A stretch of 40,000 bases of DNA from Nitrosotalea sp. GTDB lineage: Archaea; Thermoproteota; Nitrososphaeria; Nitrososphaerales; Nitrosopumilaceae. The notes beneath the pieces are model-generated. The model did not search any database. It had not been told where the DNA came from and saw only the letters and a list, made by a program, of their open reading frames with translations. Below, piece by piece: positions 1-14,095 of the stretch. The position numbers and the translations under genes are program-made. The stretch's first letter is position 1. Every line of letters begins with the position of its first letter. The stretch covers positions 1-40,000 of the forward strand of contig JBOGQX010000062.1 in NCBI GenBank assembly GCA_050749285.1, read 5' to 3'.

Positions 1-647
1 ATCGCCGTTTTTATTCTTAATTCTTTTACTTTACCAATATCATGTAAAATGCAACCTGCAATTAGTAGATCCTTGTTAAGTTCTGGATGCATTTCTATGA
101 CTCGTTCCGCAATTTTTATCATGCTTAACACATGTTCTAAAAGACCGCCACCAAAGTTATGATGATTTGATGAGGCTGCAGCTGATTTAGAATACTCTTC
201 CATAAATTTTTCATCGAAGATATGAAGTAAAAGGCGCTTTATATCCGGATTTTCAACTTGTGAAATTATGTTTTTGAAATCTACTTTCATTTTTGTTATA
301 TCTTTTTTAGTCATAGGCATGAAATCTTCCATGCTAAATTCGTCTACTTTTTTAATTAGACCAGAATCCATATTGACTGAAATACTAATTGGACCTCTAA
401 AATCATCAGTTTTACCTTTAATGTGTACTACATCCTGAACATCAAATGAAGAATAAATTGCACAAGTTTCTGTTTTTTTATCTCCTCCAAAGAAGTTTAA
501 CATTACTTCGCCAGTCTTATCTGAAACGGTAAGAGTGAACATAGTGCCATTCTTGTAAGGCCGAGGCGATTCTTTGTTTTTCACTGCAAACAAATCGTCT
601 ACTGTTTCATCTCTTTTTTTTAAATCTGCTATAAACTGTTTTTTCAC
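1..647 (-). CDS. OB-fold + HD-domain phosphohydrolase (YhaM-like); N-terminal part only, because the gene runs off the window start
   Basis: Absent from the ORF track because it is truncated by the window edge. My reverse-strand translation starts at GTG 647, preceded by an in-frame TAA at 653-651. It reads VKKQFIADLKKRDETVDDLFAVKNKESPRPYKNGTMFTLTVSDKTGEVMLNFFGG...SSNHHNFGGGLLEHVLSMIKIAERV...AGCILHDIGKV. That is an OB-fold-like N-terminus followed by HD-domain H...HD motifs. Confidence 0.6.
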   Translation of the reverse strand, partial: MKKQFIADLKKRDETVDDLFAVKNKESPRPYKNGTMFTLTVSDKTGEVMLNFFGGDKKTETCAIYSSFDVQDVVHIKGKTDDFRGPISISVNMDSGLIKKVDEFSMEDFMPMTKKDITKMKVDFKNIISQVENPDIKRLLLHIFDEKFMEEYSKSAAASSNHHNFGGGLLEHVLSMIKIAERVIEMHPELNKDLLIAGCILHDIGKVKELRIKTA

Positions 648-817
648 GTGTTAGTTTCAATGAGATTACATATCTATCTACCGCTCAATTAGGCACAACA
701 TTTGATGAATACAAGATTTTCAAGAATTATTGAATTATTCTAATTTATTTTATATTCACTTTAGCATATTGTAGTATTCAATTGTCTCAAAGTATCACCA
801 GCTCATTTTTGTATGTC

Positions 818-1069
818 CTAATGTAACTGAGGTTGTTGTTTCTCAATCTTATGAGACATCTTGTATTCTATTTCATTAATCTTGTCTTCATATCTGACAA
901 ATACAGTATTTGGAGTATCACATTCTAGACCTAATCGGCCATCGTCATACCTAACCCAATACATATCACCGCTATAATCTTCAAGTATATCCAAAATCAC
1001 GCATACTGCTCTTTCTCCTTTATCGATATTGATTATTCTTATCTTATCTCCTACCAAAAATCTATCCAT
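818..1069 (-). CDS. Small hypothetical protein (83 aa)
   Basis: Intact ORF with an ATG start and protein-like composition (DKIRIINIDKGERAVCVILDILEDYSGDMYWVRYDDGRLGLE). I recognise no motif. Confidence 0.4.
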   Translation of the reverse strand: MDRFLVGDKIRIINIDKGERAVCVILDILEDYSGDMYWVRYDDGRLGLECDTPNTVFVRYEDKINEIEYKMSHKIEKQQPQLH

Positions 1070-1140
1070 GACTATCTCTTCTTACTTTGTGCTATAGAGA
1101 GTAGGTTATAATCAAATTACCTTTTGTTAACCTCATGCAA

Positions 1141-1607
1141 CAATATGCGCTGCGTAAATACGTGAAGATATACGCATAAATCCGCTGATGCAATGTGATT
1201 TATATCCTATGCGCGTGAGTAAAATCCAAAAATCGCGCGCATCGGTTCAAAAAACTAGCGCTTTTGAGCACGGTACACATCAAGCGCACATTTTGCACTA
1301 GCGCGATTCAAAACGCGCCGCTGGTATCGCACAAAATGCGCCAAAAATCATACACGCCCAATACGCTTTGATGCACGCGTCTATCATCTGCGCATATTCA
1401 AAAGCGCACACGCAATAGACTGGATCATTCATTGAATCAATGCATCAGGACACGGATTGAAATCAACACGCACGTGATTCCAGTATAATCCGATTTGAAA
1501 ATACAAAAGATACGCGCAAAGATCCACGTGCTTAAGATCTAAAATTCGAAAGATGCGCACGCAACCAAAGAATCTTGAATGATTCCACGTAGGATTTTTG
1601 AATGAAT
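1141..1607. repeat. Non-coding array of degenerate GCGC/CGCG-containing iterons, followed by two TGATTCCA...TTTGAA repeats
   Basis: I counted 13 GCGC tetramers between 1147 and 1558. Recurrent words include TTCAAAA-N0-6-GCGC (about 1246, 1306, 1396) and AAAAT(C)GCGC (about 1228, 1334). There is a direct repeat of TGATTCCA(N)GTA...GATTT(T)TGAA at 1475-1500 and 1580-1602. No ORF of 60 aa or more covers 1100-1428. Confidence 0.6.
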
Positions 1608-1685
1608 GTTTCCAAGAATGGTTCCGAAAGATACCATAGTGGATCCTAGTCTTATGAATCAACTTATGAAAATCCTGTTTGGATC

Positions 1686-2234
1686 TTACCGTATTACTGG
1701 CTGTCCTTTTTGTCCTATCTCTACTGCCATCATGTCTAGGAACTCTTCGGCAACTCTTTTGTGAGCAAGTGATGTAATTAGATCCTCTTTTCGCAAATAT
1801 TCAATCACAATTTTTACAATCTCATATGCTAGTGGTGCTTTCCATAGGTCAAACGCTCTATTCTCATTGATTTTTTTATAATTCGATATTGGAAAATTAC
1901 CAAAAAGAGCAGATAACACGTCAACCAGCGGTGAAGGTACAAAACATTTTCCAGAAACTAGACGGTGATCAAATATCTCTTTTACCTGTTCAGGATGCGC
2001 TACAAAACAGAATAGCTCCAAATCTTTGAGACCACTTCTAACAGTTGTTCTGACATCATACCAAAATTCAGCATTGTCCTCTTGATAGTTCTTTTTTGCT
2101 TGTGCTTTTACTCCTAACAGTTTTCGGCGTTTGTCTTCTGTAAATACTCCTCCATCGGCATCAAGATGATCCTTGAACTGATCATGAATATTCTTAAGGT
2201 CGTTTTCGACTATTTCTCGTCTATATTTGGCCAT
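1686..2234 (-). CDS. Hypothetical protein (182 aa), element-borne
   Basis: Intact ATG ORF with protein-like, predicted helical composition and no recognisable motif. It is divergent from the polymerase operon across a 56-bp spacer. Confidence 0.5.
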   Translation of the reverse strand: MAKYRREIVENDLKNIHDQFKDHLDADGGVFTEDKRRKLLGVKAQAKKNYQEDNAEFWYDVRTTVRSGLKDLELFCFVAHPEQVKEIFDHRLVSGKCFVPSPLVDVLSALFGNFPISNYKKINENRAFDLWKAPLAYEIVKIVIEYLRKEDLITSLAHKRVAEEFLDMMAVEIGQKGQPVIR

Positions 2235-2290
2235 TCTATATTATAGTATGGCCATTAATTACCTATTAAATATTCCGATCAATAGTAGGT

Positions 2291-2668
2291 GTGAAAAAAC
2301 TCCAGAAACTGCGAAACCAACTTGGTTCAGTTAAAAAGGAAATAGATTCACTAAAGACATTCAGACCGACAAAACAGACTGGACAATTACTCAGACATTT
2401 ATTTGCAGAAAATAGTCGCATTGTAAATGCAATAAAGAAATTACAATTATCCTCAGAATCAAGACAAAAAGAACGCCAACAAAGACGACAAAGAGCAAAC
2501 CTTAATCGCAGAACAAAAATGACGCGTGGTTGGAGATTTTTTAAAGCAATAAAGGAAAATTATCTTCCTGACAAATCTACAAAAGAAATCCGCTCACAAT
2601 TTTCCAAGTTTAAAAAAGGACTGGAGACAGACATCGCAGAAGTCATATGGAGGAACCCTAGTCCATGA
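2291..2668 (+). CDS. Highly basic 125-aa protein translationally coupled to pPolB (possible DNA-binding or terminal-protein candidate)
   Basis: GTG start. The stop overlaps the polymerase ATG by 4 nt (ATGA at 2665-2668). It has a Lys/Arg-rich core, SRQKERQQRRQRANLNRRTKMTRGWRF. Confidence 0.5.
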   Translation: MKKLQKLRNQLGSVKKEIDSLKTFRPTKQTGQLLRHLFAENSRIVNAIKKLQLSSESRQKERQQRRQRANLNRRTKMTRGWRFFKAIKENYLPDKSTKEIRSQFSKFKKGLETDIAEVIWRNPSP

Positions 2669-4542
2669 CTTTACAAATACACCTTCCAAGATCAAAAGCT
2701 AAAGACCTCACATACATCAAACAAGGAAGACCAAATAGAAATGTAAACCAGTCAGTGCGTAGAAAAGTAAAGGGAATTGATTCTGAAACATCTGATGGAG
2801 ACATTTTTCTAATTTGTGACTCTGATGGAAATTTCTTGGATTATCCAAACATTACATTTGATGGTATATCTGAATTTCTTTTCAAACATGAGGATTCTTG
2901 GTTATTTTGCTATAATCTACAATATGATGCTGAATGTATAATGAAATTACTGCCCTCTGAAGTATTTGATCCATATAGAAAGAAGAAACAATTACGTTTT
3001 GAATACAAAAACTATACAATTACATACATTCCAAAAAAGCAATTCAAAATACAAAAAGGAAATCATACAGTTTCGCTTTACGATATCGCACAATACTATG
3101 GCAATGTGCCGCTAGCCGATGCATATTCAGAGCACATCAAAAAACCCCTAGATCAAGACTATCTGAAAACCAAGAAAATACGAAAGAATTTCAGTCTCAG
3201 GCACTATTTTAGGCACAAAAAGCCTATTCGAAGATACTGTACTACAGATTGTATTCTAACAAAGGACTTGGCAGAGCACTGGCTAGACACATTTTTTGGA
3301 GCATATGGTTTCTATCCTGCAAACTGGGTTAGTTCTGGATATTTGGCAGAAAAAGTATTGATTCACAACGAGATACCCATTCCATTCTTTAATGATACCT
3401 TGTATGATATCCAGAAACTAGCATGGGAATCATTTTACGGTGGACGGTTTGAGCTCATACAGCGCGGGTTTATTGGCCAATGCTATCTGTATGATATCAA
3501 TTCAGCATATCCGTATGCTTTGACATTTCTTCCAGATATTACAGACGGAAAATGGATTGGAACAAGAAAAATAAATCCAGGATCTGCATTAGGATTTTTC
3601 CACATTCGTGCCCAAATAGATTATTCAGTAAAGATTGCGCCATTTCCATTTAGAACAAAAAATAATAGAATAATCTATCCAACAGGTGAGTTTGAAACTT
3701 TTGTTACACTCGAAGAATTAAAGGCAATAACAGGAGATCCAAAAATAAAATACAAGATAATTGATTCGTATCAGTTTATTCCAAATGTAAATTGTCAGTA
3801 TCCATGCAAAAAATTCATCATAGAGCAATATGATAAAAGAATGAAACTAAAAAAACAGGGCAACAAACAGGAAGTGGCAATCAAGATCATACTAAATTCC
3901 ATGTACGGTAAAACTGCCCAACGTGTGAATAACCAAATGGGAAATTTATTCAATCCCGTAATTGCATCATATATCACCGGATTTGCAAGGGCACAACTGT
4001 ACAAATTTGTGAAAGATCATCAGTTGGAAAAATACGTGGTCGCCTTTGCAACGGATTCCATTGCATGCAGGAAAAAGATTCCATGCATAGATAGTAAAAA
4101 ACTAGGTGAGATGAAACTAGACAAGGAGGGGCATGACGTGTATTTTCTCTCAAACGGTTTTTACCTGTTTAATGGAATGTGGAAAAATCGTGGAATTGGC
4201 TATGATACTGAGAAAAAGGCCGAAATCGAGCACTTGGATACCAAAATAGACAAGGATGGTAACTTGTACATTACAGTCAAAACCACGAAAACCACACACA
4301 TCAAAAGCGGAATCATATACAATAAACTCGATAAAATAGGCAAGATCGAGGAATATGAGAAGAAAATTGGCTTAAATTCTGACAGAAAGCGATACTGGCA
4401 CTCTGAATTAAAATCGTTAAAAGAAAAAACATTTTGTGATTCTTCGCCGATTCCAATTGATGTGGTTGACGATATTATTTCAAAGAAGGAGATTGAATGG
4501 ACTATGGATGATGACGGTTATGAACCTGAAAGCGAACTTTAA
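2665..4542 (+). CDS. Family B DNA polymerase, protein-primed type (pPolB)
   Basis: Exo I is GIDSETSDG (DxE), Exo II is YNLQYDAE and Exo III is YCTTD. Pol motif A is LYDINSAYPYAL, motif B is KIILNSMYGKTAQ and motif C is AFATDSI. At 625 aa it has the compact size typical of pPolBs. Confidence 0.9.
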   Translation: MTLQIHLPRSKAKDLTYIKQGRPNRNVNQSVRRKVKGIDSETSDGDIFLICDSDGNFLDYPNITFDGISEFLFKHEDSWLFCYNLQYDAECIMKLLPSEVFDPYRKKKQLRFEYKNYTITYIPKKQFKIQKGNHTVSLYDIAQYYGNVPLADAYSEHIKKPLDQDYLKTKKIRKNFSLRHYFRHKKPIRRYCTTDCILTKDLAEHWLDTFFGAYGFYPANWVSSGYLAEKVLIHNEIPIPFFNDTLYDIQKLAWESFYGGRFELIQRGFIGQCYLYDINSAYPYALTFLPDITDGKWIGTRKINPGSALGFFHIRAQIDYSVKIAPFPFRTKNNRIIYPTGEFETFVTLEELKAITGDPKIKYKIIDSYQFIPNVNCQYPCKKFIIEQYDKRMKLKKQGNKQEVAIKIILNSMYGKTAQRVNNQMGNLFNPVIASYITGFARAQLYKFVKDHQLEKYVVAFATDSIACRKKIPCIDSKKLGEMKLDKEGHDVYFLSNGFYLFNGMWKNRGIGYDTEKKAEIEHLDTKIDKDGNLYITVKTTKTTHIKSGIIYNKLDKIGKIEEYEKKIGLNSDRKRYWHSELKSLKEKTFCDSSPIPIDVVDDIISKKEIEWTMDDDGYEPESEL

Positions 4543-4639
4543 AGCGATGTTTAAACCTTGCAAAGCGTAATTTAAAGATGTCAAATTACCTAAAACCTAG
4601 CCTTAACTAGAAATCAACCTATCAAAACAGATTCAAAAT

Positions 4640-6055
4640 CTATCTTCGTTCTCTCCATTTTCGCTTTTTTGGTTTTAGTTCACGAGCCCTAGATTTGTCG
4701 GTAGCAAGGTATGGTTTTTGGGAATCACCAAACGCTATTTTCCCGACATATTCACATCCTAAAACACAATCTTTCAGTATTGGTATTATATCTCCAGGAT
4801 AGTAATTGTAAGGTTGTTGACCCAGATCACCCATTTTTCCCATATTTGTAACAAGTTCTACAAATTGAATGGCTTCAAGACCTGCTAATGCTACTACAAA
4901 TGGCATTATACTTTGTCGTGTTGGTCCACTTTCCGATTCAAGTTTTTCAATATATTTTGGATCATCAAATAGCCCATCCCTATCTCTTTGAACCTCACCA
5001 GCATCAAACGCCTTTAGACAACTCATGCATGCGCGTTCCGGACCAACTGTCTGGGCTCTGTACATACCATGAATTAGGGTTTCATTCAATACTTTGAAAG
5101 ATATTCCACCATCTACTACAGGTATTAAACATGAATATGCCAGATTATTTAGTACCTGTCTTGGCCAAGGCCTATCGACACAACTGAATATTACATCACA
5201 ATCTAATGCTTCTTTGTAGCCGTCAGGTTCTACTACGCTACTTTCAGATTTTGTACACAAAAATTTGTTTGCAGTTGCTGCTTTGGTGAGATTTTTCTGA
5301 ACTACATCAATTTTTTTCCGACCCACATCATCTTCTGAAAGACAATTCATTCTGTCAAGATTGTGGATCTTAACCTTATCGTAATCCATGATAAAAATTT
5401 CACCTACCCCAAGTCTGGCTAAGGTTTCACCAACCATTGAGCCAACACTGCCTACTCCAATTATTCCTACTTTCATCCGTGCAATGTCAGCTTGTTTTTC
5501 TTTGCCCCAAACTGTTAACGTTCTGATTTGTTTTTTACTTGTTCTGGGAGGGAATTTGATCTTTGGATTGAAGTGTATTGTTAAATTTTTGCCTACAATT
5601 CTAATAGCGGAACACCATTTTATCTTAAACGGGATAGGGTAGATTCTGCCACTCCATGTTCCGTTTCCTGCTAATGTCATCCCAACAAAAGGATAACCTG
5701 TGATTCCAAAAACCTCTCTTGAAAGGACATCTTGTTCATAATAAAGATCGGGTGACGATACATTTTGCCAGTTAACACCACCTGGATGAGTATGGATCAT
5801 TGCTAATCCACCCCCTTTCTCCCTTGCTAATTCCTTAACTCTGTCAACATATTCTGGAAGAGCTGATACTGTTCCATCACGAATTCTTTCCTTATCCTCT
5901 GGAAAGATTATGTCTCTGATGAGAACAGAATAACGTGATTTACCCTCCGCAGGATGCCAAATAGCAAAACAAATTTCCTCATCAGAAGTATCTTTCAATA
6001 GGAAATCGTTCAGTAACCTATTTGTTGATTCAGTCATTGCAATGTTGTATTCCAT
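4640..6055 (-). CDS. JAB/MPN (JAMM) metallopeptidase fused to a ThiF/MoeB/E1-like adenylating domain
   Basis: The N-terminus has E26/E27 (EEICFAIW) and H88-T-H90...S100-S-P-D103 (MIHTHPGGVNWQNVSSPD), which is a JAMM motif. The C-terminal part has the Rossmann motif G200-V-G-S-V-G205 followed by IFIMDYDKVKIHNLDRM and CVDRPWPRQVLNNLAYSCLIPVVDGG (ThiF/E1 signature). It also has Cys pairs CMSC and CVLGC, resembling a MoeB/ThiF-like Zn site. Confidence 0.85.
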   Translation of the reverse strand: MEYNIAMTESTNRLLNDFLLKDTSDEEICFAIWHPAEGKSRYSVLIRDIIFPEDKERIRDGTVSALPEYVDRVKELAREKGGGLAMIHTHPGGVNWQNVSSPDLYYEQDVLSREVFGITGYPFVGMTLAGNGTWSGRIYPIPFKIKWCSAIRIVGKNLTIHFNPKIKFPPRTSKKQIRTLTVWGKEKQADIARMKVGIIGVGSVGSMVGETLARLGVGEIFIMDYDKVKIHNLDRMNCLSEDDVGRKKIDVVQKNLTKAATANKFLCTKSESSVVEPDGYKEALDCDVIFSCVDRPWPRQVLNNLAYSCLIPVVDGGISFKVLNETLIHGMYRAQTVGPERACMSCLKAFDAGEVQRDRDGLFDDPKYIEKLESESGPTRQSIMPFVVALAGLEAIQFVELVTNMGKMGDLGQQPYNYYPGDIIPILKDCVLGCEYVGKIAFGDSQKPYLATDKSRARELKPKKRKWRERR

Positions 6056-6056
6056 T

Positions 6057-6428
6057 TCAATTAATCTCCAACCATCGGTTTACATGATCAATATAGTATT
6101 GTGAATTACGCCTGCCTGGATTCCAGTTATTGATCTGCCTACTCCAAAATCTCCAATCTCCACCTAGCGTACTTGGATTGTCAGATTTAGGAATGTTTTC
6201 AGTAAAACCATGATCTGATTTCACATGTATTCCATATGGTGCAGTAGTAGGATAATCCTGCGGTATAGGAAATCCTATATTCACGATTTTACCTTCGTAT
6301 TTTCCACTGGGTATAACATAACCAGTTATTTTGAAAATAATCTTCCCATCGGATGGAATTTTTTCATAGTTCAATAATTTACCTTTTAAGAAGTCTTCAA
6401 AATTCTGGACAGATGCATCGTCTGCCAT
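6057..6428 (-). CDS. E2/UBC-fold-like protein without any cysteine (UEV/RWD-like or non-canonical prokaryotic E2)
   Basis: It has an E2-like core, IGFPIPQDYPTTAPYGIHV (P-x-D-Y-P...P...H), and a C-terminal W-rich helix region, WRFWSRQINNW...YYIDHVNRWL. It lies 1 nt upstream of the JAB-E1 start and 8 nt downstream of the Ubl gene. The 123-aa sequence contains no Cys. Confidence 0.55.
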   Translation of the reverse strand: MADDASVQNFEDFLKGKLLNYEKIPSDGKIIFKITGYVIPSGKYEGKIVNIGFPIPQDYPTTAPYGIHVKSDHGFTENIPKSDNPSTLGGDWRFWSRQINNWNPGRRNSQYYIDHVNRWLEIN

Positions 6429-6436
6429 ATTCCATC

Positions 6437-6673
6437 TTATGCGGGGTTTATGGGTCCAGTGAATCTAGTAGTGAAATGATCTCCGTCCTTTACTTCAATT
6501 ATCTGATTAGGATCTGTGTATGTATGTTCTACTGGACCTCTCTCGCCCTTTCTTTTCTGTAACTCGTATTCTCCCGGCTTCCCACCTCCCAGTTCTATCA
6601 AAGTACCAACCTTCACATCGTCGGATTCAAGTTCAAATTTTTGACCGTTCACAAAAACAACTATTTTATGCAT
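6437..6673 (-). CDS. Small beta-grasp / ubiquitin-like protein (multiubiquitin-type single domain)
   Basis: The 78-aa sequence has the pattern KIVVFVNGQKFELESDDVKVGTLIELGG...YELQKR...IIEVKDGDHFTT. This is typical of prokaryotic Ubl domains found beside E1/E2/JAB genes. Its operon position lies between the unknown gene and the E2-like gene. Confidence 0.55.
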   Translation of the reverse strand: MHKIVVFVNGQKFELESDDVKVGTLIELGGGKPGEYELQKRKGERGPVEHTYTDPNQIIEVKDGDHFTTRFTGPINPA

Positions 6674-6690
6674 TCTTTCACCCCCATATC

Positions 6691-7284
6691 CTACCTAGCT
6701 TTTGACAAAAGCTTCAGTGCCAATTTACTTAACCAATAATGATGTGGCACATTTCTGAATCCCATCCAGTAATAATCATAACTTTCATCATACAAGTTTT
6801 TAGCACCAAGAGCAGCGACAACTTTACTATATTTATGAAGCTGTTGTTGAACGTCACCGCTTTCAAGAGTTTTTCTAATTAATCCTAAATTGTTAGTTGG
6901 TAGAGCCAAAGCATTAGCAACAACTGTCCTTGCAGTAGAACTCACTATCAAATATGCGTATAATCCTCGTCGTTCTCTTTGAAGTGCTGCATATATTTCA
7001 CGGTCAGTATCTAGCCTGCCGCCTCTTTCATATTTGAAATACACTTTCTGCTCTTTTTCTTTTTTATCTAACAGACGATATTTTTTATATGCAGGATAAA
7101 ATGCGTTATCGTTTGCACCGTTCTTGATAAATTCCCATTTGGTTTGTTGATGTGCTTCGTCTACTGCATCAAGTTTCTCACCTGCCAATAACACGTCAGC
7201 GGTTTGTGATAGAGTTCGCATTCTAGGAAAATCCTTCTTTAGTTCCTGCATCAATCTGGCTTTTGGTGAATTTATTACAGACAT
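6691..7284 (-). CDS. Unknown 197-aa protein, first gene of the Ubl operon (contains an RNxxxH motif)
   Basis: Intact ORF with a GAGGT Shine-Dalgarno-like sequence 8 nt upstream of the ATG. It lies 17 nt upstream of the Ubl gene. It is predicted helical. R177-N-V-P-H-H182 fits the HEPN-type Rx4H pattern, but this is motif-level evidence only. Confidence 0.55.
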   Translation of the reverse strand: MSVINSPKARLMQELKKDFPRMRTLSQTADVLLAGEKLDAVDEAHQQTKWEFIKNGANDNAFYPAYKKYRLLDKKEKEQKVYFKYERGGRLDTDREIYAALQRERRGLYAYLIVSSTARTVVANALALPTNNLGLIRKTLESGDVQQQLHKYSKVVAALGAKNLYDESYDYYWMGFRNVPHHYWLSKLALKLLSKAR

Positions 7285-7538
7285 GCTTCAACCTCACTAT
7301 CAGTCATGAAAATCCTAAACCTTGCCAGTTTTGGTTCGTTTTTATCCCCTAATGGATACATTAGATGTCTTTTTTATGCTCTAGTATTTAACCTATTTCC
7401 TATGAGACACCGGATGAATAGGTAGAACTCCTTCATGGATGGGTGTGCTGCACGAGACAAAACAGCATCAAATTGACCAGAAGAAATACTGTATTACAGA
7501 CAGCTTTTTATTACATAATTTATCCATGTATGGATATA

Positions 7539-7688
7539 ATGGCATATTCAAGTGGATACACATCCGTAAAAGTGCCTAAAACATTGGCTGAAAAAATCAA
7601 CGTAGTTGCTGAAAAAGAAGGCTATCGCTCGGTCTCGGAATTTTTGTTAGATGCTGCGAGAAGACGTCTAGAAGACTTTCAAAAGTAA
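7539..7688 (+). CDS. Ribbon-helix-helix (CopG/Arc-like) DNA-binding protein, 49 aa
   Basis: MAYSSGYTSVKVPKTLAEKINVVAEKEGYRSVSEFLLDAARRRLEDF shows the classic RHH pattern of beta strand, helix and helix. The track ORF starts at GTG 7443, but its first 32 aa look non-protein-like. A TATA-like TTTTTATTA at 7505-7513 lies about 26 nt before ATG 7539. An oligo-T tract follows the stop. Confidence 0.7.
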   Translation: MAYSSGYTSVKVPKTLAEKINVVAEKEGYRSVSEFLLDAARRRLEDFQK

Positions 7689-8064
7689 CTTCTTTTCTTT
7701 TTTGTTTTAAGGGCGTAGTATACTAGTGGAAACCATCGTTTGATCTGGTCGCAGTGACTAGTCATAATTTTCTTTTTCGTATATCAACTTTCGGAGAAAG
7801 AAAATCTCAAGCCACATTCCATCTAGTGGTTGTGATCGCTTTACCTTTTGACAGAATTCTTATTCACCAAGAGTGAATGGTGAATATTGCGTGTAGAATC
7901 AGCTAATCATTTTAGATCAATACATAAATAGTCGATAGTTGCTTTCTTGTAAAATATGGCGGAAATTGATTTTCACAGCAGCTCAAAAAAAATAGTAATC
8001 CCAGAAGCAGCCTTCAAGTTACTAGCAGAAAACAAGAAAAAAGACTAGTCTTAACATATTAATT

Positions 8065-9576
8065 TTATTGTGAACGAGCCACTGCCTGGGCAATAATATT
8101 TCTTACTGTTCGGACCTCTTCTCTGGACGATTCTCTTTTCCTTCTATTTGGTATTAGATAAAAAACAAATAGGTTTGGAAAGTCTTCCCATTCTTCATTT
8201 ATTTTTACGGCATATGGCGAAATTGTAGTAAGTTCTCTTAATTTATCATCTTTGGAAGTACCAAATATCAAAATAGTATTTTTTTCAGATAGTGGTTCGT
8301 ATGGTTTCCTCGGAAAATCCTCAGAAAACACGTAAATGTCTCTAAGAGGATTTCCTTTATCTTCAAACATTTCCTTTAACAAAGGTGGCGACTTTTCTAA
8401 AAAAAATGAATTAATTTTAGATAGTACAACTTTGTTATCTTCAAAGAGATCTGATTCTTCCTTAATTTTTTCGATCATCGAACTGTAATCCATAATATGT
8501 TTAAAAACCGATATTGGTAAATATCGCCTGTCTACAATCCCGAAAAATTTATGATAAGAACTTTTTCTACTAACGAATTTTTTAATTATGGAGAGAACAT
8601 TTTCATCGGTTGATTTTCCCTCAGCATATGAAGTCCAATGAAATAATTCAGCAATTTCCTCCCTCTCGTGTATTATCCTCTCAATGGCACGTCTTATTAG
8701 GGCATTAGTGGCTGTGACTGCATGATGCTGATAAAACCATTTGTACATTTTAAATCGAGCATCTAGCATATCTTCTACGTTACCTAAAGCCCTTGCATGA
8801 ATAGCAATTTCGAATTTTCCAGGTCTTTTTCTTTTTACAATGGACATATTATTAATTATTCTGGTAATGTCGGTACGCCCAAATTGCACACCTGACATTA
8901 GGCTGTCACGTAACAGATAGTCCATTCTATCAGCATCTAATTGACTTGAAATAATTTTTCTTAAAATTGAATATCCCTGAGGATATTTCTTAGCATAAGT
9001 TATTGGTGCTTTGACCAATAGTGAAGAGATTGATTTGAGAAGGTTCTCACCTCCTTGGGAATGCTGTTTAATTGTTTTTGCTATTTCTCCACTATTGACC
9101 AACTTGTACGAGAAAAACTCATGGATTGGAATATCATCTTCATCTTCCATAAACAGTTTTTTTGCTTCACTAATCTCCTTTTTGTGATAAAGTTTTGTCA
9201 CTTCAAGCATCGCTCTTTCTGCAGAATGAGAAAATGGGCCGTGACCAATATCGTGAAAGAGGCATGCCAGTCTAACACTTTTTATAATAAATTCCTTTTT
9301 CGATTTTTTGAATAGTTCATCATAGTAGTCATCCGATGTGTTTTGTATTAGTTGCGTTATAATTTGATGGCCCACGTGTAATGCACCTATAACGTGTGAA
9401 AATCGTGTTGTCACGGATCCTGGAAAGGTAAGATACGCAGTAGCTGTCTGTTTAACATAATGTAACCTATTGAGTGTGGGTAACTGTAGCAAATCATATT
9501 CCAGAGTTGTCAAAGGAATTGGTCCGTGAACAGGGTCTCCTATGATTTTTGGGAGAGACAGCTTTGGAACATCCAC
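8065..9576 (-). CDS. HD-domain dNTP triphosphohydrolase (SAMHD1 / COG1078 / dGTPase-like)
   Basis: DPVHGPIPL...LNRLHYVKQT...TRFSHVIGALHVG, CLFHDIGHGPFSHSAE and QLDADRMDYLLRDS are the hallmark motifs of SAMHD1-type HD dNTPases. It has a GTG start. Confidence 0.85.
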   Translation of the reverse strand: MDVPKLSLPKIIGDPVHGPIPLTTLEYDLLQLPTLNRLHYVKQTATAYLTFPGSVTTRFSHVIGALHVGHQIITQLIQNTSDDYYDELFKKSKKEFIIKSVRLACLFHDIGHGPFSHSAERAMLEVTKLYHKKEISEAKKLFMEDEDDIPIHEFFSYKLVNSGEIAKTIKQHSQGGENLLKSISSLLVKAPITYAKKYPQGYSILRKIISSQLDADRMDYLLRDSLMSGVQFGRTDITRIINNMSIVKRKRPGKFEIAIHARALGNVEDMLDARFKMYKWFYQHHAVTATNALIRRAIERIIHEREEIAELFHWTSYAEGKSTDENVLSIIKKFVSRKSSYHKFFGIVDRRYLPISVFKHIMDYSSMIEKIKEESDLFEDNKVVLSKINSFFLEKSPPLLKEMFEDKGNPLRDIYVFSEDFPRKPYEPLSEKNTILIFGTSKDDKLRELTTISPYAVKINEEWEDFPNLFVFYLIPNRRKRESSREEVRTVRNIIAQAVARSQ

Positions 9577-9847
9577 AGGTAGACAAGGTGAATCATGCTG
9601 ATAAATTTAGTTATTAATATCATGACAGGATGGAAAAAATCAGCTTCTATTTTGGTTAGCTCTTCTGTTTTCCAGTTTCTATCTTCCATGTATTTGTCAC
9701 AAAAAGCAGACAGCTTCTCAAATCTTTCCTTTTACACTTCAAGTTCAATGGATTTGCCACCTTCAACATTGAATCTGAAGTGCTAATTCATCATTGGAAA
9801 AAACTGGACTAAATATCTTATAGGGGAAAATTACTGCATTTTGTATG

Positions 9848-9976
9848 TCAAGTAATGTATTGTTTTGAAACCTTAACCGCAATTGGTTTGAATTGAAAAG
9901 TTTCTATAAGAATTACTAAAAGTACAATGAAAGAAATAGCAATAACACATATGGCAATAATTAGGATTGTTTCCAT
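9848..9976 (-). CDS. Possible 42-aa single-pass membrane peptide directly downstream of cas1
   Basis: My translation is METILIIAICVIAISFIVLLVILIETFQFKPIAVKVSKQYIT. It starts 14 nt after the Cas1 stop on the same strand. It is below the size cut-off of the ORF track, and short AT-rich ORFs often arise by chance. Confidence 0.2.
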   Translation of the reverse strand: METILIIAICVIAISFIVLLVILIETFQFKPIAVKVSKQYIT

Positions 9977-9990
9977 GATGTACTTTCAAA

Positions 9991-11124
9991 TCACTCTGTT
10001 CTATTAAGTTGCCCGTTGAATCCAAATTTTCTTAATTCTATACATTTCATTTTCATAATCGTAATCTCCTCCATCATCTGATAACCATCCTTCCTTCTGA
10101 TCCCACTTCTTGCTTTGTATGGTCTTTTTCTGTCAAAAATAGTAGAAAGCAAATCAATGTATTTTTTCTTCAAATCATCAGATAATACCACAATCCCATA
10201 TCTAGAAAATGTGTAATCCTTCTTGCGTATCTGATTTTGAATCTCAAGGACGCTTCTATCTATCAAATGTCTAAAGGGTTCTATCATATCATACACCAAT
10301 GCTAATTGAGACTCATGGTTTCTGTGATAGAAGCCGACATAGCAATCAAGACCTAGTGAATTGAGTTGCTTTGCTACCTCTGCATACAAGATACCAAATC
10401 CATAATTCAGAAGACCATTGATTACATCTGATGCATCTTTAGGTCTAAATGTTCTAGCATTATTCCTAGAATGAAATCCCAGCTCGGAATCAAATAATAA
10501 TGAAAAATTAGGATAATAGATTTTTGCAATGTCACTTTCAACCTTCATTATTTCACGTAGTTCATGAGCAGAATCAAGTCCCTTCAGTCGTTGTTTCATT
10601 GTTGATATTATCTTTCTAATCTTCTCTTTTACCTCTGGCTTTACCTTAAGAGAATAATTCATTCCAGAAGACTGATTATTACAGATCTGCCACTTTCTAT
10701 TGTACGAGTTATAGACTCGTTTTGGTTCTGCCACAAACTCCTCAAACAGTCTGATTTGTGATTCAATCCTTTGTGATATTAGCCACTTTCTAAGAAATTC
10801 TAACCTCTTTAGATCTCTGAAAGTATCATACTGTTTTTGTCTAACTAATGGTTCATGACCTCCAATTTTATGAAAGTAGCTGAATAACTTGCCACGCTTG
10901 TCAAGCATTACAACATTGATTTTAGAATCTGCAAGTCGTTCTAGCGCCTCAGTGGATACGTATCCCCTGCCTTGGATTACAACCTTGTCAAATGGACAAG
11001 CACTAGCTGGTAGCTCTAGAATTTCTCTTTTGTTTGAGAAAGGATCAATTCCTTGTGAAAATACCAATCGTGTGTTTTGTACTTTGATCGAGAGGCCATA
11101 GCCATGAAGGAATAAGGATTTCAT
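9991..11124 (-). CDS. cas1: Cas1-family integrase (casposase)
   Basis: Cas1 signatures are VESDIAKIYYPNF, VINGLLNYGFGILYAEV and GFYHRNHESQLALVYDMIEPFRHLIDRSV (catalytic E/H/D region). There is a 4-nt overlap with the upstream HNH gene. No Cas2 or CRISPR array is present in the window. Confidence 0.9.
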   Translation of the reverse strand: MKSLFLHGYGLSIKVQNTRLVFSQGIDPFSNKREILELPASACPFDKVVIQGRGYVSTEALERLADSKINVVMLDKRGKLFSYFHKIGGHEPLVRQKQYDTFRDLKRLEFLRKWLISQRIESQIRLFEEFVAEPKRVYNSYNRKWQICNNQSSGMNYSLKVKPEVKEKIRKIISTMKQRLKGLDSAHELREIMKVESDIAKIYYPNFSLLFDSELGFHSRNNARTFRPKDASDVINGLLNYGFGILYAEVAKQLNSLGLDCYVGFYHRNHESQLALVYDMIEPFRHLIDRSVLEIQNQIRKKDYTFSRYGIVVLSDDLKKKYIDLLSTIFDRKRPYKARSGIRRKDGYQMMEEITIMKMKCIELRKFGFNGQLNRTE

Positions 11125-11480
11125 TTCTTCGAAGAATGCCCTTTCTTGAAATTACACTGATAACATAGCGGCTGAATGTTGTCTATGCTATCGCTACCGC
11201 CTTCTAACAGAGGAATAATGTGATCTTCAGTTATCTTGTATTTGGCAGAACCTTTTGAGAATGGTATATCTTCCCATTTCCTATTACACCTAGGACATCT
11301 ATCATATTGTTTGAGTTTATCTTGAAATTCCTTATCGGTGTGGGTGCCTACCGCGTTTCTTTTTCTTGTATTGTAGGTTTTTGCCCTCAATTGCCTACAG
11401 GTCTTACAGTATTTGTGAACTTTACCACTAGTTGATGTCCAAGTGCTCCAGTTATCATGGCCTTTTCCACACTGTGTCAT
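11121..11480 (-). CDS. HNH endonuclease (119 aa)
   Basis: ITEDHIIPLLEGGSDSIDNIQPLCYQCNFKKG is an HNH motif. CxxC pairs (CKTC, CPRC, CYQC) indicate zinc binding. Confidence 0.85.
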   Translation of the reverse strand: MTQCGKGHDNWSTWTSTSGKVHKYCKTCRQLRAKTYNTRKRNAVGTHTDKEFQDKLKQYDRCPRCNRKWEDIPFSKGSAKYKITEDHIIPLLEGGSDSIDNIQPLCYQCNFKKGHSSKK

Positions 11481-11696
11481 TTACCGTAATTCGCTCTTCT
11501 TTTTGTCGGTGCCTTCAACAATGTTGTGGCATTTCCTACAATAGATCACAATATTCTGCCATCGATCATCTTTTGCTATGTGGTTTCTGTGATGAATTGT
11601 AAGATCAACCTCTGGAATTCCCTTCTTGCATCTCTCGCATTTTGCGTTAAAATATCTCAGAATTGCAGTTTGATTGAAGCGTTTTCGGCTACTCAT
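11481..11696 (-). CDS. HNH endonuclease (71 aa)
   Basis: CERC...LTIHHRNHIAKDDRWQNIVIYCRKCHNIVEG gives an HNH core with two Cys pairs. It abuts the second HNH gene with no gap. Confidence 0.75.
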   Translation of the reverse strand: MSSRKRFNQTAILRYFNAKCERCKKGIPEVDLTIHHRNHIAKDDRWQNIVIYCRKCHNIVEGTDKKKSELR

Positions 11697-11914
11697 GAAG
11701 GAATTGATCTATTCTAAACAAAATACTTTACGACCAGCGTCATATTTCTATGCGTAATTTGGGGGGATACTATTTTTATTGAACCGCAGTAAAAATGGAA
11801 TACCCCTCGTTGAAGGGAAACATGCTTTTGTCATAAATTTTATCTAATTCAGAAATTATCATTTGATTTCACAGTCGACAGATCCTTTAACTAGGAACTG
11901 TACATAGCGGAATC

Positions 11915-12256
11915 ATGGGCCAGAAAATATCAGGGATAGAGAAGTTTCTTTCTCCATCGTTAAACAAAATAGAGGAAGAATTAAGATCAATTCATGCTGA
12001 GATTAATATAGTAAAGGCAAGAATGGATGAGACTGACAATAGGTTGACAAAGTTAGAAGAGGATCATAGACGTCTTACAACTAGGATGGATAAGACCGAC
12101 AATGGACTGACAACCGAGCCAAAAATCCTAATTGATAACATAAATGAAATGGAAAAGCAGAATAGAGATGAGATTGATGTTCTAAAGCGCGTCATGGATG
12201 TCGCACAAAGAAGGTTAGTCATTCTTGAAGCCAAAATGAAAGAGCTTGGCAAATGA
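11915..12256 (+). CDS. Coiled-coil protein with internal repeat (113 aa)
   Basis: It has heptad-like charged sequence with the repeated unit RMDETDNRLTKLEE / RMDKTDNGLTTE. An antisense ORF at 12064..12252 is disregarded. Confidence 0.5.
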   Translation: MGQKISGIEKFLSPSLNKIEEELRSIHAEINIVKARMDETDNRLTKLEEDHRRLTTRMDKTDNGLTTEPKILIDNINEMEKQNRDEIDVLKRVMDVAQRRLVILEAKMKELGK

Positions 12257-12283
12257 ATTAATTCCCACTTTGTGCATTGTCTA

Positions 12284-13006
12284 CTACTTGCCCGTAGTAA
12301 TTTCTATGCTAGCACATGAAAAAGTTGAAACATCACGTATTTCACTTGTATCTTGACCTGAGAATCGATATGTATCTTTGAGGTCATTTACATAAGGATA
12401 GTATGATTGAAATTTACACTTGGTGTAATGTACGGTTTCAATTATTGAACTATCACCTGCAATAATATCTATTGCAACATCAAACAGTGGGTAGTCGGAA
12501 TTTGTCGCCGCTATATTCATGTACTGATTAATGAAATTATAGTAACTTTGTTTATCTTTAGTCGGTATTGATTCCAAATAAAATTGTGGAGGTCCACCAG
12601 AGTCTGTTGCTGGTGCGCTGGGACCACCTTCTGTTACTCCAAACATACCGATTTTTGAAAAAGTGTTAATGGTCATAGTGTTGGTAGCTGTGGTAAAATG
12701 AACTACAAACGATTGCGCCATTGTGTCAGGACTCAAATTTGAGTTGGTTGCAGTTACTGTTGTAGTTGGTATTGGATTTGGTATTTGAGTTGGGATTTGA
12801 ATTATCCCTTGAGTAATGAGATATTGTAAACCTTTAACGTATTCTGTGTCTGTGATATTTCCTTCCGACCACCACTTAGCATTATTTTTTATCCACTGAG
12901 GAATAACAATTTGTTGAGCAGAAGCCTCGAAGGATACAGTAGCAACAGCTAGAATTCCAATAATCAAAGATAGGTAAACAATTTTGATTAATTTCAATAA
13001 ATTCAT
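12284..13006 (-). CDS. Secreted or cell-surface protein (signal peptide)
   Basis: The N-terminus MNLLKLIKIVYLSLIIGILAVATVSFEASAQQ is a signal peptide. It is followed by an IPQWIKNNAKWWSEGNITDTEYVKGLQYLITQGII module that, as I recall, recurs in thaumarchaeal extracellular proteins. Confidence 0.6.
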   Translation of the reverse strand: MNLLKLIKIVYLSLIIGILAVATVSFEASAQQIVIPQWIKNNAKWWSEGNITDTEYVKGLQYLITQGIIQIPTQIPNPIPTTTVTATNSNLSPDTMAQSFVVHFTTATNTMTINTFSKIGMFGVTEGGPSAPATDSGGPPQFYLESIPTKDKQSYYNFINQYMNIAATNSDYPLFDVAIDIIAGDSSIIETVHYTKCKFQSYYPYVNDLKDTYRFSGQDTSEIRDVSTFSCASIEITTGK

Positions 13007-13087
13007 TTTTGATAAAAACTACATAAATGTATTCTAGCGAAGATGATAACTATCAGCTCTAAAATTTACGACTTTTTCAATCTTTTT

Positions 13088-14095
13088 TTATTGATTTTTG
13101 CTGACAAATGTCAACACATCATCCAGTGTGGGCGGAATTCCTTGTGTATTACCAACGTAAAGCGATGCTGCACCGTTTGCAAAGAGTAATCGCTCGTATG
13201 GATCTAAATTTGCCAAATATCCAACTATATTTGCAGCATCCCACACATCACCTGCCCCAGTAACAAAATTAGGTTCAACGGAAAATGACTTGGCAAAATC
13301 AACCTCTTTTCCGTTTGACCAATATGCCCCAGAAGAAATGTGAAGATCAATAGAAACTAAGGTCTTTTTTGACAAGTCAAGAATTAATTTTCTAGTTTCT
13401 TCCACATCAGATATGCCTTCCAAACCATATTGCTTTAGGAGTATATTGCACTCGTTTTCGTTAATACACAAAGAATCCAACAAGATACCAAGTTCACTAA
13501 TGGCATTTTTGAACTCGCTTGGTCTTGTTTGTACATCTGCAGGATCTAAAAAATGCATGGCTCTTGGGGATTTTTCGAATACAAATTTACAAAGTTCTGT
13601 TCCTTTTTCATTACTTGCCCAATTTGCAACAATTACAGCATCTGAATTTCTAATTGCTTTCTGTTCTTTTGGTCCAAGTTTCTCAGGTCCAAAATTTTCG
13701 TTATCACCTAGATCTGAGAGCATTATGTTTACAATTTTGCCGTCGTTACGAAACTCAAGTGATGTTGTCCTACCCGGTTTGCCATCAATTACAAAAAGAG
13801 AAGCTTTTTGAAATTCTGAGAATGTGTCCCTTAGGAGAGTTGCACTTGCTTTATCAGCCACAGTAATTAGAGTGATTGTACATCCAAGCCTAGCAAGAGC
13901 ATATGCAACATTTGTTGCGTTGCCTCCCTTGAGGTCCTTTTGAGATATACCACGAATACTTCCTCCAAATTTACTTTTTTCTAATATTTGTTGATAGACT
14001 TTTTCAATATCTGAAATCTTGACTATCCTGTCCAGAAAAAAATCGTTTAGAACAACAACTGAGCCTAAGTTTAGATTTTGCAGTTTTTCTAACAT
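13088..14095 (-). CDS. PfkB-family (ribokinase-like) sugar/nucleoside kinase
   Basis: GGNATNVAYALARLG is the N-terminal PfkB motif. TGAGDVWDAANIVGYL is the C-terminal PfkB signature. Confidence 0.8.
   Translation of the reverse strand: MLEKLQNLNLGSVVVLNDFFLDRIVKISDIEKVYQQILEKSKFGGSIRGISQKDLKGGNATNVAYALARLGCTITLITVADKASATLLRDTFSEFQKASLFVIDGKPGRTTSLEFRNDGKIVNIMLSDLGDNENFGPEKLGPKEQKAIRNSDAVIVANWASNEKGTELCKFVFEKSPRAMHFLDPADVQTRPSEFKNAISELGILLDSLCINENECNILLKQYGLEGISDVEETRKLILDLSKKTLVSIDLHISSGAYWSNGKEVDFAKSFSVEPNFVTGAGDVWDAANIVGYLANLDPYERLLFANGAASLYVGNTQGIPPTLDDVLTFVSKNQ

Follow-up and report, generated by a model that had tools for sequence, protein, structure and literature searches.

The best-described relatives of the locus reported here, a compact operon on the minus strand of a 40,000-nucleotide stretch of archaeal DNA (Nitrosotalea sp., GenBank assembly GCA_050749285.1, contig JBOGQX010000062.1, positions 1 to 40,000; the whole stretch is hereafter called the window), are the 'bacterial ubiquitination-like' (Bub) systems. 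Type I Bub, formerly '6E.1', comprises BubAB, BubCD and BubE in Citrobacter sp. RHBSTW-00271 (PDB 9EA4, 9EA5, 9EA8, 9EAE and 9EAV; Ye, Gong, Chambers & Corbett, bioRxiv 10.1101/2024.11.21.623953, hereafter the Bub paper). BubAB is a fusion of a ubiquitin-like protein (Ubl) to an E2 and is cut by the JAB domain of BubCD, a fusion of a JAB peptidase to an E1, while BubE is a serine protease of family DUF6527/PF20137 (bioRxiv 10.1101/2024.11.21.623953). Type I operons have been characterised both structurally and biochemically, and their defining traits are the JAB-E1 fusion and an E2 without Cys; the Ubl is relayed on oxyesters instead of cysteines, by way of a Tyr on the crossover loop of the E1 and a Ser on the E2 (Bub paper). 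DUF6527 was the seed of the published census, which counts 544 Bub operons (header of Table S1 of the Bub paper). The same table lists some Type I operons with separate gene IDs for Ubl and E2, as well as a thaumarchaeal Type II Bub.

Four genes of a Bub-type operon

Judging by sequence, we think it quite probable that the window encodes a Bub-type ('6E') Ubl conjugation system which is nearest to Type I Bub, falls in a sub-clade without BubE, and occupies the cargo slot of a casposon as a probable conflict or defence system. We place it as a relative of Type I Bub (6E.1) because BubCD is the top solved relative of its JAB-E1 protein, its E2 belongs to Prok-E2_E, and its Ubl is linked transitively to Multi_ubiq. 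The genes are these:

4640-6055, minus strand: JAB/JAMM peptidase::E1 adenylation fusion (BubCD-like), 471 aa (amino acids)
6057-6428, minus strand: Cys-less E2 (BubB-like, Pfam Prok-E2_E), 123 aa, with putative catalytic Ser96
6437-6673, minus strand: single-domain Ubl (BubA-like), 78 aa, with the tail ...FTGPINPA
6691-7284, minus strand: accessory protein, 197 aa, without Cys, mostly helical, with a possible winged-helix C-terminal half

All four open reading frames (ORFs) begin with ATG and are tightly packed at 4640-7284, with intergenic gaps of 1, 8 and 17 nt; the 8-nt gap is the one between Ubl and E2, which are encoded as two ORFs in different frames. An earlier reading of this DNA from its letters and ORFs only (the sequence-only reading) had given the same coordinates, lengths and gaps, which the ORF list reproduces. 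The ORFs are beyond chance, because each has homologues and the order Ubl-E2-JAB::E1 recurs in other genomes. Identical proteins in NCBI are annotated to a Nitrosotalea sp. metagenome-assembled genome (MAG), and the same locus was recovered independently in two other assemblies (L011 and L012).

The 471-aa protein matches Pfam ThiF (1.2e-28, residues 175-405), and its closest match in the PDB is Citrobacter BubCD, a JAB-E1 fusion of 458 aa (phmmer 2.5e-19 over residues 6-320; 2.6e-37 with a family profile). The match spans both the JAB and the E1 domain, at an identity of only ~25-30%. In an alignment of 24 archaeal and bacterial JAB-E1 homologues, the JAMM residues E26, H88, H90, S100 and D103, the adenylation residues G200, G202, G205, N232, D234, R235 and D294, the four cysteines of a Zn-type Cys4 site (C343, C346, C430 and C434) and Y368 are all invariant; the JAMM motif, the G200xGxxG205 loop, the NLDRM motif and the two Cys pairs that the sequence-only reading had picked out are all present and invariant in it. 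Mapped onto BubCD (Citrobacter reference sequences from Table S2 of bioRxiv 10.1101/2024.11.21.623953), E26 corresponds to E28, H88/H90 to H91/H93, D103 to D104, R235 to R227 and D294 to D286. The crossover loop, from C346 to Q378, is free of Cys, and its sole Tyr is the invariant Y368 ('KYIEKL'), which stands in the same 'YI' context as Citrobacter Y370 ('GYITG') and is likely to be its equivalent, the pairwise alignment of the loop being ambiguous. The window protein shares with BubCD the order of the two domains, a similar length, the catalytic residues and a Cys-less loop with an invariant Tyr; it differs in that the E1s of its clade keep a Cys4 Zn-type site, which Citrobacter BubCD lacks.

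The Cys4 site is also typical of MoeB and ThiF, and the E1 domain does match ThiF and MoeB models, as would be expected of a housekeeping sulfur-carrier or cofactor system (ThiS, MoaD or SAMP with a ThiF-, MoeB- or UbaA-type E1). All biosynthetic NCBIfam models nevertheless remain far below their cut-offs (ThiF 75.3 against 275, MoeB 55.7 against 266, UbaA 44 against 450). In addition, the E1 domain shares its gene with a JAMM peptidase, an E2 gene precedes that gene, the Ubl ends in Pro-Ala and has no Gly-Gly terminus, and the distribution of the operon is sporadic and tied to mobile elements. The sequence-only reading had itself named a sulfur-carrier E1 in a conserved core locus as the case that would overturn it; with the scores below cut-off, the sporadic distribution and contexts rich in mobile elements, that case is ruled out, and the sulfur-carrier reading is, to us, extremely improbable and effectively refuted.

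The 123-aa protein belongs to Pfam Prok-E2_E (E=1e-10; 41.9 bits, cut-off 25), so the expectation that 6057-6428 should be UBC-like is borne out above threshold at the level of a sequence profile. Read from its sequence, it contains no Cys anywhere. Its motif 'DWRFWS96RQ' aligns to 'YQWRWS333RH' of Citrobacter BubB, with Ser96 opposite the catalytic Ser333, and across 76 loci S96 and W92 occur in all, H68 in 70 and D58 in 61. The signature of the Citrobacter E2 is a Ser with an invariant H335 at +2 and D299 (bioRxiv 10.1101/2024.11.21.623953). A His at +2 was never found in the 76 loci, which have P, N, R or Q there (Gln in the window); in its place the window has the conserved His68 and Asp58. 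The bacterial E2s were drawn from fetched loci, an E2 search of a word-indexed protein database having yielded nine close matches only, and no PADLOC model was matched by the window E2 or Ubl. What the window and Type I Bub have in common at this gene is a Cys-less Prok-E2_E protein with an invariant Ser in 'W-S-R', a Ubl immediately upstream, and location on a mobile element.

The window Ubl has no direct Pfam match, Multi_ubiq included, and its assignment proceeds through relatives. A Nitrosopumilus genome (L001) encodes a natural fusion of Ubl and E2, 199 aa long, whose N-terminal half shares 76% identity with the window Ubl; in phmmer searches the window protein also matches bacterial Ubl ORFs, with E-values down to 3e-9. 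One of these bacterial Ubls (L045), matched at 1.7e-6, reaches 26.8 bits against Multi_ubiq over the whole model (cut-off 24.5), and other bacterial Ubl ORFs match Multi_ubiq over its full length, slightly under threshold. Bacterial relatives at ~40% identity, such as that of Rhizobium (L009), match both Prok-E2_E and Multi_ubiq. Membership of the Multi_ubiq beta-grasp family by transitive homology is well supported at the family level and predicted for the window protein itself. Pfam, PDB and transitive homology together uphold the gene identities first proposed for this locus, namely a JAB::E1 fusion, an E2-like protein and a Ubl.

Of 60 split Ubl ORFs of this kind, 48 have Ser as their last residue and 6 have Ala; a few carry 1-4 additional residues. 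The consensus of their tails is ...GPTPVS in most bacteria and ...GPINPA in archaea, and the tail motif is also found at the Ubl/E2 junction in 12 of 13 fused forms. The terminal Ala78 of the window Ubl aligns to Gly229 of Citrobacter BubA, which is the residue exposed by JAB cleavage (bioRxiv 10.1101/2024.11.21.623953). It looks, then, as if the Ubl is made in its 'mature' form from the start, with a small terminal residue other than Gly. Besides this terminus, Ala in the window and Gly in Citrobacter, the two differ in that Citrobacter BubA has three beta-grasp domains and the window Ubl a single predicted one, and in that the window encodes Ubl and E2 as separate ORFs and has no BubE/DUF6527.

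Our initial reading of the tail was that the JAB domain cuts after Gly73 (...TRFTG/PINPA), which would give the Ubl a canonical Gly end and make the last five residues a pro-peptide. In its favour, the archaeal clade conserves Gly73 and bacteria often have it as well ('GPTPVS'), the JAMM site is complete, and characterised Ubls, Citrobacter BubA included, all react via a C-terminal Gly (bioRxiv 10.1101/2024.11.21.623953). We dropped this reading, and now judge it unlikely, since the position of Gly73 is occupied by N, K, D or T in many bacterial members ('FHNDPTPVS', 'FDKKPTPVS') while the terminal PVS or NPA is conserved, and since both the Citrobacter alignment and the fused forms put the junction after the terminal Ser or Ala.

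Several observations weigh against so close a kinship with the Citrobacter system. The equivalence of Y368 and Y370 is drawn from invariance and the shared 'YI', and the pairwise alignment pairs Y368 with another Tyr; the E2 departs from the published Type I signature of Ser, His at +2 and Asp; and the Ubl ends in Ala, as against a conserved Gly in published BubA. A single-sequence AlphaFold2 (AF2) model of the Ubl has a predicted local distance difference test (pLDDT) of 47, and Foldseek with that model returned noise only. In hhalign, the Ubl profile against beta-grasp domain 3 of Citrobacter BubA gave a probability of 6%, which is not significant, and the same profile against the PDB put bacterial Ubl and multi-ubiquitin proteins on top, at E ~0.5 only.

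The '6E' neighbourhoods, with the Pfam families derived from them, Prok-E2_E (PF14462) and Multi_ubiq (PF14452), are attributed to Iyer, Burroughs and Aravind (refs 6-8 of the Bub paper); those predictions already associate a Cys-less E2, a Ubl of multi-ubiquitin type and a JAB-E1 fusion, and differ from the window in that they were made for bacteria and in that the window Ubl is too diverged for a direct Multi_ubiq match. Archaea have Ubl systems in the SAMP/UbaA system of Haloferax and the Ub/E1/E2/E3 operon of Caldiarchaeum, which use Gly-Gly termini and cysteine or persulfide chemistry, SAMP having no E2. They resemble the window in uniting an archaeal Ubl and an E1-type adenylating enzyme with a JAMM peptidase partner; the window E1 is set apart from UbaA by its 44 bits against a model cut-off of 450. 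The sequence-only reading had compared the operon with Bil (BilABCD) and with Cap2/Cap3 of Type II CBASS (cyclic oligonucleotide-based antiphage signalling system), which are likewise prokaryotic E1/E2/JAB modules on mobile or defence islands. Neither is the right nearest comparator, since their chemistry runs through cysteines: Bil and Cap2 rely on a catalytic Cys, which the window E2 and the E1 crossover loop do not have. Their architectures are also unlike that of the window, the Bil E1 being of the form IAD-AAD-CYS and Cap2 an E2-E1 fusion that conjugates a cGAS-like enzyme, and PADLOC models of Cap2-type E1-E2 proteins match the window JAB-E1 partially, in the adenylation core only. The JAB-E1 fusion and the Cys-less E2, which had been taken for the unusual architecture of an undescribed system, are hallmarks of Type I Bub/6E.1.

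A sub-clade without BubE

Scanning a single genome of each species yielded at least 561 loci with relatives of the JAB-E1 protein, the 80 closest of which were examined in detail. The relatives come from many bacterial phyla and, among archaea, from Nitrosopumilus and Thermoplasmata. The sequence-only reading knew of no characterised archaeal equivalent; archaeal relatives nevertheless abound in the databases, with dozens of clusters at 45-71% identity, and a thaumarchaeal Type II Bub stands in the published Table S1. An E2 lies directly upstream of JAB-E1 in 85 of the 88 loci tabulated. Ubl and E2 are split in 61 loci and fused in 13, so separate ORFs are the norm in the clade. At least 75 loci in bacteria, and several in archaea, belong to the sub-clade.

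BubE/DUF6527 was not found in the window, either with Pfam or with a purpose-built hidden Markov model (HMM) run on all ORFs of at least 45 aa in positions 1-14000. Among related loci, DUF6527 lies next to the operon in 3 of ~75 non-redundant cases and in none of the archaeal ones (Pfam and HMM, 92 loci). The three are divergent, bacterial genes that abut JAB-E1, two of them on the opposite strand (L026, 9421-9795; L028, 9422-9817; L043, 9419-9811). Searches by phmmer and jackhmmer with two published BubE sequences found nothing, a misleading result, since Pfam and the rebuilt HMM found three. The BubE-less branch is missing from the published census because that census was seeded on DUF6527.

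What appears to be new here, from the sequences compared, is the BubE-less sub-type, the Ala/Ser terminus, the different constellation of E2 residues, a private 197-aa partner, and the association with a casposon. The last of these is confined to a single lineage and structurally ambiguous. A further difference from Type I Bub lies in the host, which is bacterial there and archaeal here.

Some of the related loci have features of their own. The relative in Rhizobium leguminosarum (L009, 2264-6407), 41% identical, encodes its E2 fused to a multi-ubiquitin Ubl (Multi_ubiq 1.5e-18); upstream of it, a small gene and a Peptidase_M78 gene form a pair resembling the CapH/CapP regulators, ~3.7 kb downstream are without called genes, and an HD/HD_assoc gene is nearby. 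In two archaeal loci, a gene for an AAA_22-type ATPase lies divergently upstream of the operon (L001 and L002, 8101-9234; L152, 11-1198), and in L001 the operon is followed by a 192-aa gene; the ATPase or the 192-aa gene may be another recurrent accessory.

The regulators of Type I Bub are CapW or CapH/CapP; the window instead has the 197-aa gene and, divergent from it, the following gene:

7443-7688, plus strand: ribbon-helix-helix (RHH, CopG-type) gene, Pfam RHH_1 1.1e-05, above threshold

The 197-aa protein has no Pfam, NCBIfam, PADLOC, PHROG or PDB match. Its family comprises 17 clusters in a word-indexed search, with all named members from Nitrosotalea or Nitrosotenuis, and 52 representatives among 1.84 billion proteins. 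In the window the gene is upstream of the Ubl; in L005, L151 and L152 it is directly downstream of the E1, the slot of BubE in canonical operons, and in L152 it overlaps the E1 stop codon. Three further loci (L006-L008) have a gene of this family without any Ubl, E2 or E1 gene. The 197-aa gene is a lineage-restricted, facultative fourth gene, and its link to the operon is recurrent and not obligatory. In an AF2 model (mean pLDDT 66.6), confidence is confined to residues 90-170, which form a helical core, and the hairpin after them, and Foldseek with this model found no significant match; the model faintly hints at a regulatory, winged-helix-like protein. A small RHH/MazE-like gene is likewise divergent beside a 197-aa family gene in L007, L008 and L011, and beside the operon in L005. 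The RHH protein is likely to be a local regulator, and the 197-aa gene with its divergent RHH partner possibly forms a lineage-specific accessory module of regulatory function.

The operon and the casposon slot

The family 1 (thaumarchaeal) casposons, such as NitAR1-C1 and NitDev-C1 (PMC4046053, PMC6563490, PMC8464041), are the closest described counterparts of the island in which the operon lies. With them the window shares a Cas1 without a CRISPR array, a protein-primed-type PolB (pPolB) with a small upstream gene, HNH nucleases, a 13-bp target-like site, homology of its terminal inverted repeat (TIR) to those of intact relatives, and element-specific cargo among the core genes. It differs in having an internal TIR-like copy and no detectable TIR on the PolB side. 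The island measures ~11 kb and has housekeeping genes on both sides; beside the operon and the RHH gene, its landmarks are as follows:

1-647: HD/OB-fold host gene, left of the island
1686-2234, minus strand: o182, part of the casposon replication module (module 1686-4542)
2291-2668, plus strand: o125, part of the casposon replication module
2665-4542, plus strand: predicted protein-primed-type PolB (Pfam DNA_pol_B weak, E 0.0033, sub-threshold)
7942-8002: internal TIR-like or junction-like sequence between the RHH and HD genes
8065-9576, minus strand: homologue of SAMHD1-type HD deoxynucleoside triphosphate (dNTP) triphosphohydrolases, 503 aa, neighbouring cargo
9991-11124, minus strand: Cas1-family casposase (Pfam Cas_Cas1 1.3e-47)
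11121-11696, minus strand: two HNH-type nuclease genes of 119 aa and 71 aa (Pfam HNH 2.3e-12 and 8.6e-07)
11762-11808: casposon terminus identified by homology, consisting of a TIR, the 13-bp target-like sequence ATTGAACCGCAGT and a second, inverted TIR copy
from 13,088: PfkB and thermosome gene, right of the island

The core genes tie the island to intact elements. Its Cas1 is 80-85% identical to the Cas1 of L093 and L096, both of which are bounded by TIRs and target-site duplications (TSDs), and 73-85% identical to metagenomic relatives. Its PolB is 62-63% identical to the PolBs of TIR-bounded casposons, and PolB, o125 and o182 keep their synteny, at identities of 38-64%, in L093, L094, L096, L107, L114, L135 and L144. 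No relative of the window PolB was found among IMG/VR viral contigs, no CRISPR-like array in the 40-kb window, and no tRNA or Rfam family in the region. The core order of the related elements is TIR - Cas1 -> <- pPolB <- o125, o182 -> ... TIR. Of the two intact relatives, L096 (9906-15999) has 35-nt TIRs at 91% complementarity and L093 (431-8360) has 56-nt TIRs at 82% complementarity. The TIRs of L096 are flanked by a 13-bp direct repeat, ATTGAGCCACAAT, in agreement with the TSD length of family 1 casposons, which is reported as 13 bp (PMC8464041).

The sequence-only reading had put the operon between the polymerase and the Cas1, and this position is confirmed, with the addition that the slot is variable in related casposons. 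Between Cas1 and PolB, L096 has a gap of 0.2 kb, L093 one of 1.5 kb and L094 one of 1.8 kb; that of the window measures 5.4 kb and holds JAB-E1, E2, Ubl, the 197-aa gene, RHH and the SAMHD1-type dNTPase. An NYN nuclease fills the slot of L093 (2976-3593, Pfam 4.9e-16). L096 carries essentially no cargo between Cas1 and PolB, and its site is pfkB-proximal like that of the window. Cargo described for family 1 consists of nucleases (OLD, NERD, HNH, Cas4, HEPN) and methyltransferases, and includes no Ubl system (family 1 casposon literature); no paper pairing 'casposon' with 'ubiquitin-like' was found in the literature searched. The gene order supports placing the operon in a variable cargo slot between convergent Cas1 and pPolB. 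In L094, a ThsB-like protein with a TIR domain (here the protein domain; TIR_2 4e-08) is encoded at 6609-8075, near the PolB-side end.

The ends of the element are less regular. On the right, window positions 11691-11814 are homologous to terminal regions of L093 (517-393) and L096 (15931-16021), and ATTGAACCGCAGT is nearly palindromic and identical to the L096 TSD at 10 of 13 positions; neither candidate left end has a matching direct repeat. The sole significant inverted partner of the right terminus is 7969-8002, which pairs with 11763-11796 at a score of 20, the null maxima from 40 shuffles being 11-15, and this pair is significant only with the right arm fixed by homology, being within the null range in an all-against-all scan for inverted repeats. 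The sequence around the partner, 7942-8002, resembles the entire TIR/13-bp/TIR junction seen at 11762-11808. At the PolB-side edge no TIR was found, inverted repeats between the outer edges being no better than those of shuffles, and the window is without the 467-488-aa gene that relatives carry beyond o182, before the TIR. At the same chromosomal site the element lies in opposite orientation in L096, and L125 and L138 hold casposon remnants; the L125 contig matches the host flank of the window as far as 948. The TIR/13-bp/TIR layouts suggest that casposons integrated in tandem, or repeatedly, at a single hotspot that lies upstream of pfkB.

Two of these results count against cargo status: the only significant TIR pair (7969-8002 with 11763-11796) encloses HD-Cas1-HNH and excludes both pPolB and the operon, and the operon's other relatives are all found away from Cas1 and PolB (80 genome loci and the other archaeal loci examined). 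They leave room for a different history, in which the operon is not casposon cargo and belongs to a separate decayed element, or to an independent insertion, abutting a mini-casposon of Cas1-HD-HNH (7969-11796). It could have come about by tandem integration at the hotspot followed by deletions, and it would leave the identity of the operon unchanged. A TIR-like copy at 7969-8002 that is significant with the right arm fixed and resembles a full tandem junction, the missing PolB-side TIR and 467-488-aa gene with the TIR beyond o182, the remnants at the site in L125 and L138 and the reversed element in L096 are all what this history would predict; tandem family 1 casposons are documented (PMC6563490), and other archaeal copies of the operon lie among insertion sequence (IS) elements or in integrase islands, never near Cas1. 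It is opposed by the absence of a clean TSD around the 7969-11796 unit and by the location of pPolB, o125 and o182, casposon core genes on the far side of the operon from Cas1; because they lie there, the operon is flanked by casposon genes on both sides. We regard such an independent origin as a serious possibility, if a somewhat doubtful one. The claim of casposon cargo made from sequence stands as to position between core genes and falters at the termini, where the only significant TIR pair excludes the operon and the PolB side has none. We favour an operon that probably arrived in the slot as conflict- or defence-type cargo, in an element that is rearranged or partly decayed, perhaps after tandem integration. 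It lies outside the only intact TIR pair, and its status as cargo is positional and, to that extent, uncertain.

The neighbouring HD gene is inside that pair. Its product matches PDB 2o6i (1.4e-27) and SAMHD1 (~1e-19) over residues 9-295, as well as Pfam HD and HD_assoc_2 and the PADLOC dGTPase model (2.7e-9), which makes it a candidate casposon-borne defence gene that would act by dNTP depletion.

Other features of the island and its edge stand apart from these questions. No inverted repeat of the island is stronger than a 27-nt palindrome, TGGCCATTCTATATTATAGTATGGCCA, at 2228-2254; it lies upstream of pPolB, where o182 and o125 diverge, and is likely to be an operator or promoter element. 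Positions 11915-13006, which follow the casposon terminus and precede the first clear housekeeping gene, hold a 113-aa coiled-coil ORF on the plus strand and a 240-aa ORF on the minus strand; the latter has an N-terminal hydrophobic segment, and the host or an older element are candidate origins for both ORFs. A 12-nt sequence is repeated three times in tandem at 12764-12800.

A proposed oxyester relay in archaea

By analogy with the Citrobacter system, from which every step of the relay is taken by homology, the E1 domain of the 471-aa protein would bind the Ubl and adenylate the carboxylate of Ala78. The Ubl would then move to Tyr368 on the Cys-free crossover loop as an oxyester, and from there to Ser96 of the Cys-less E2, probably helped by His68 and Asp58, before being joined to a lysine of a target protein. 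JAMM cleavage would not be needed for maturation of the Ubl, since the Ubl has an ORF of its own, apart from the E2, that stops exactly at the processing position. Most plausibly, the JAMM domain would remove the Ubl from targets or trim extended variants, in the negative-regulator role of BubE.

All residues required for adenylation, the Tyr/Ser relay and JAMM catalysis are present and conserved. An operon that had become an inactive relic in a decaying element would suit the truncated or rearranged look of the surrounding casposon, and the sequence does come from a MAG; with four intact ORFs, every family-conserved catalytic residue in place, and an identical locus assembled from two independent data sets, we hold such a relic to be very unlikely. 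As for the role of a working system, no Bub operon yet protects E. coli from phage, and a defence or stress role has been deduced from genomic context (bioRxiv 10.1101/2024.11.21.623953). A role in defence is accordingly conjecture for the window as well, because no Bub operon has yet given phage protection.

Taken together, the parts could describe a distinct and widespread BubE-less oxyester branch, with a pre-matured Ubl ending in Ala or Ser, an E2 built on Ser96-His68-Asp58 and a JAMM deconjugase, whose 197-aa partner has taken the slot of BubE in Nitrososphaerota and which travels as casposon defence cargo with a SAMHD1-like dNTPase. That all of this holds at once is a speculative and rather unlikely proposition. 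If it did, archaea would have their first immune module based on Ubl conjugation, and such a module would for the first time be seen on a self-synthesising transposon.

As to what the locus means for the family, a census seeded on DUF6527 missed a large BubE-less branch that extends over many bacterial phyla, Nitrososphaerota and Thermoplasmata. This branch lacks two chemical features that were supposed to define the family, the Gly terminus and Ser-x-His in the E2, and could reveal what latitude the transfer of a Ubl on oxyesters allows, and what role a JAMM domain plays without a pre-protein to cut. The practical impact is moderate, the role of Bub being conjectural even in bacteria. Archaea would gain a third kind of Ubl machinery, beside the SAMP/Urm1-type and the eukaryote-like ones. 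The slot between Cas1 and pPolB holds varied conflict-type genes (an NYN nuclease, a dNTPase and a Ubl operon), with a gene for a TIR-domain protein elsewhere in a relative, and these varied contents therefore lend support to the view of casposons as carriers of defence genes.

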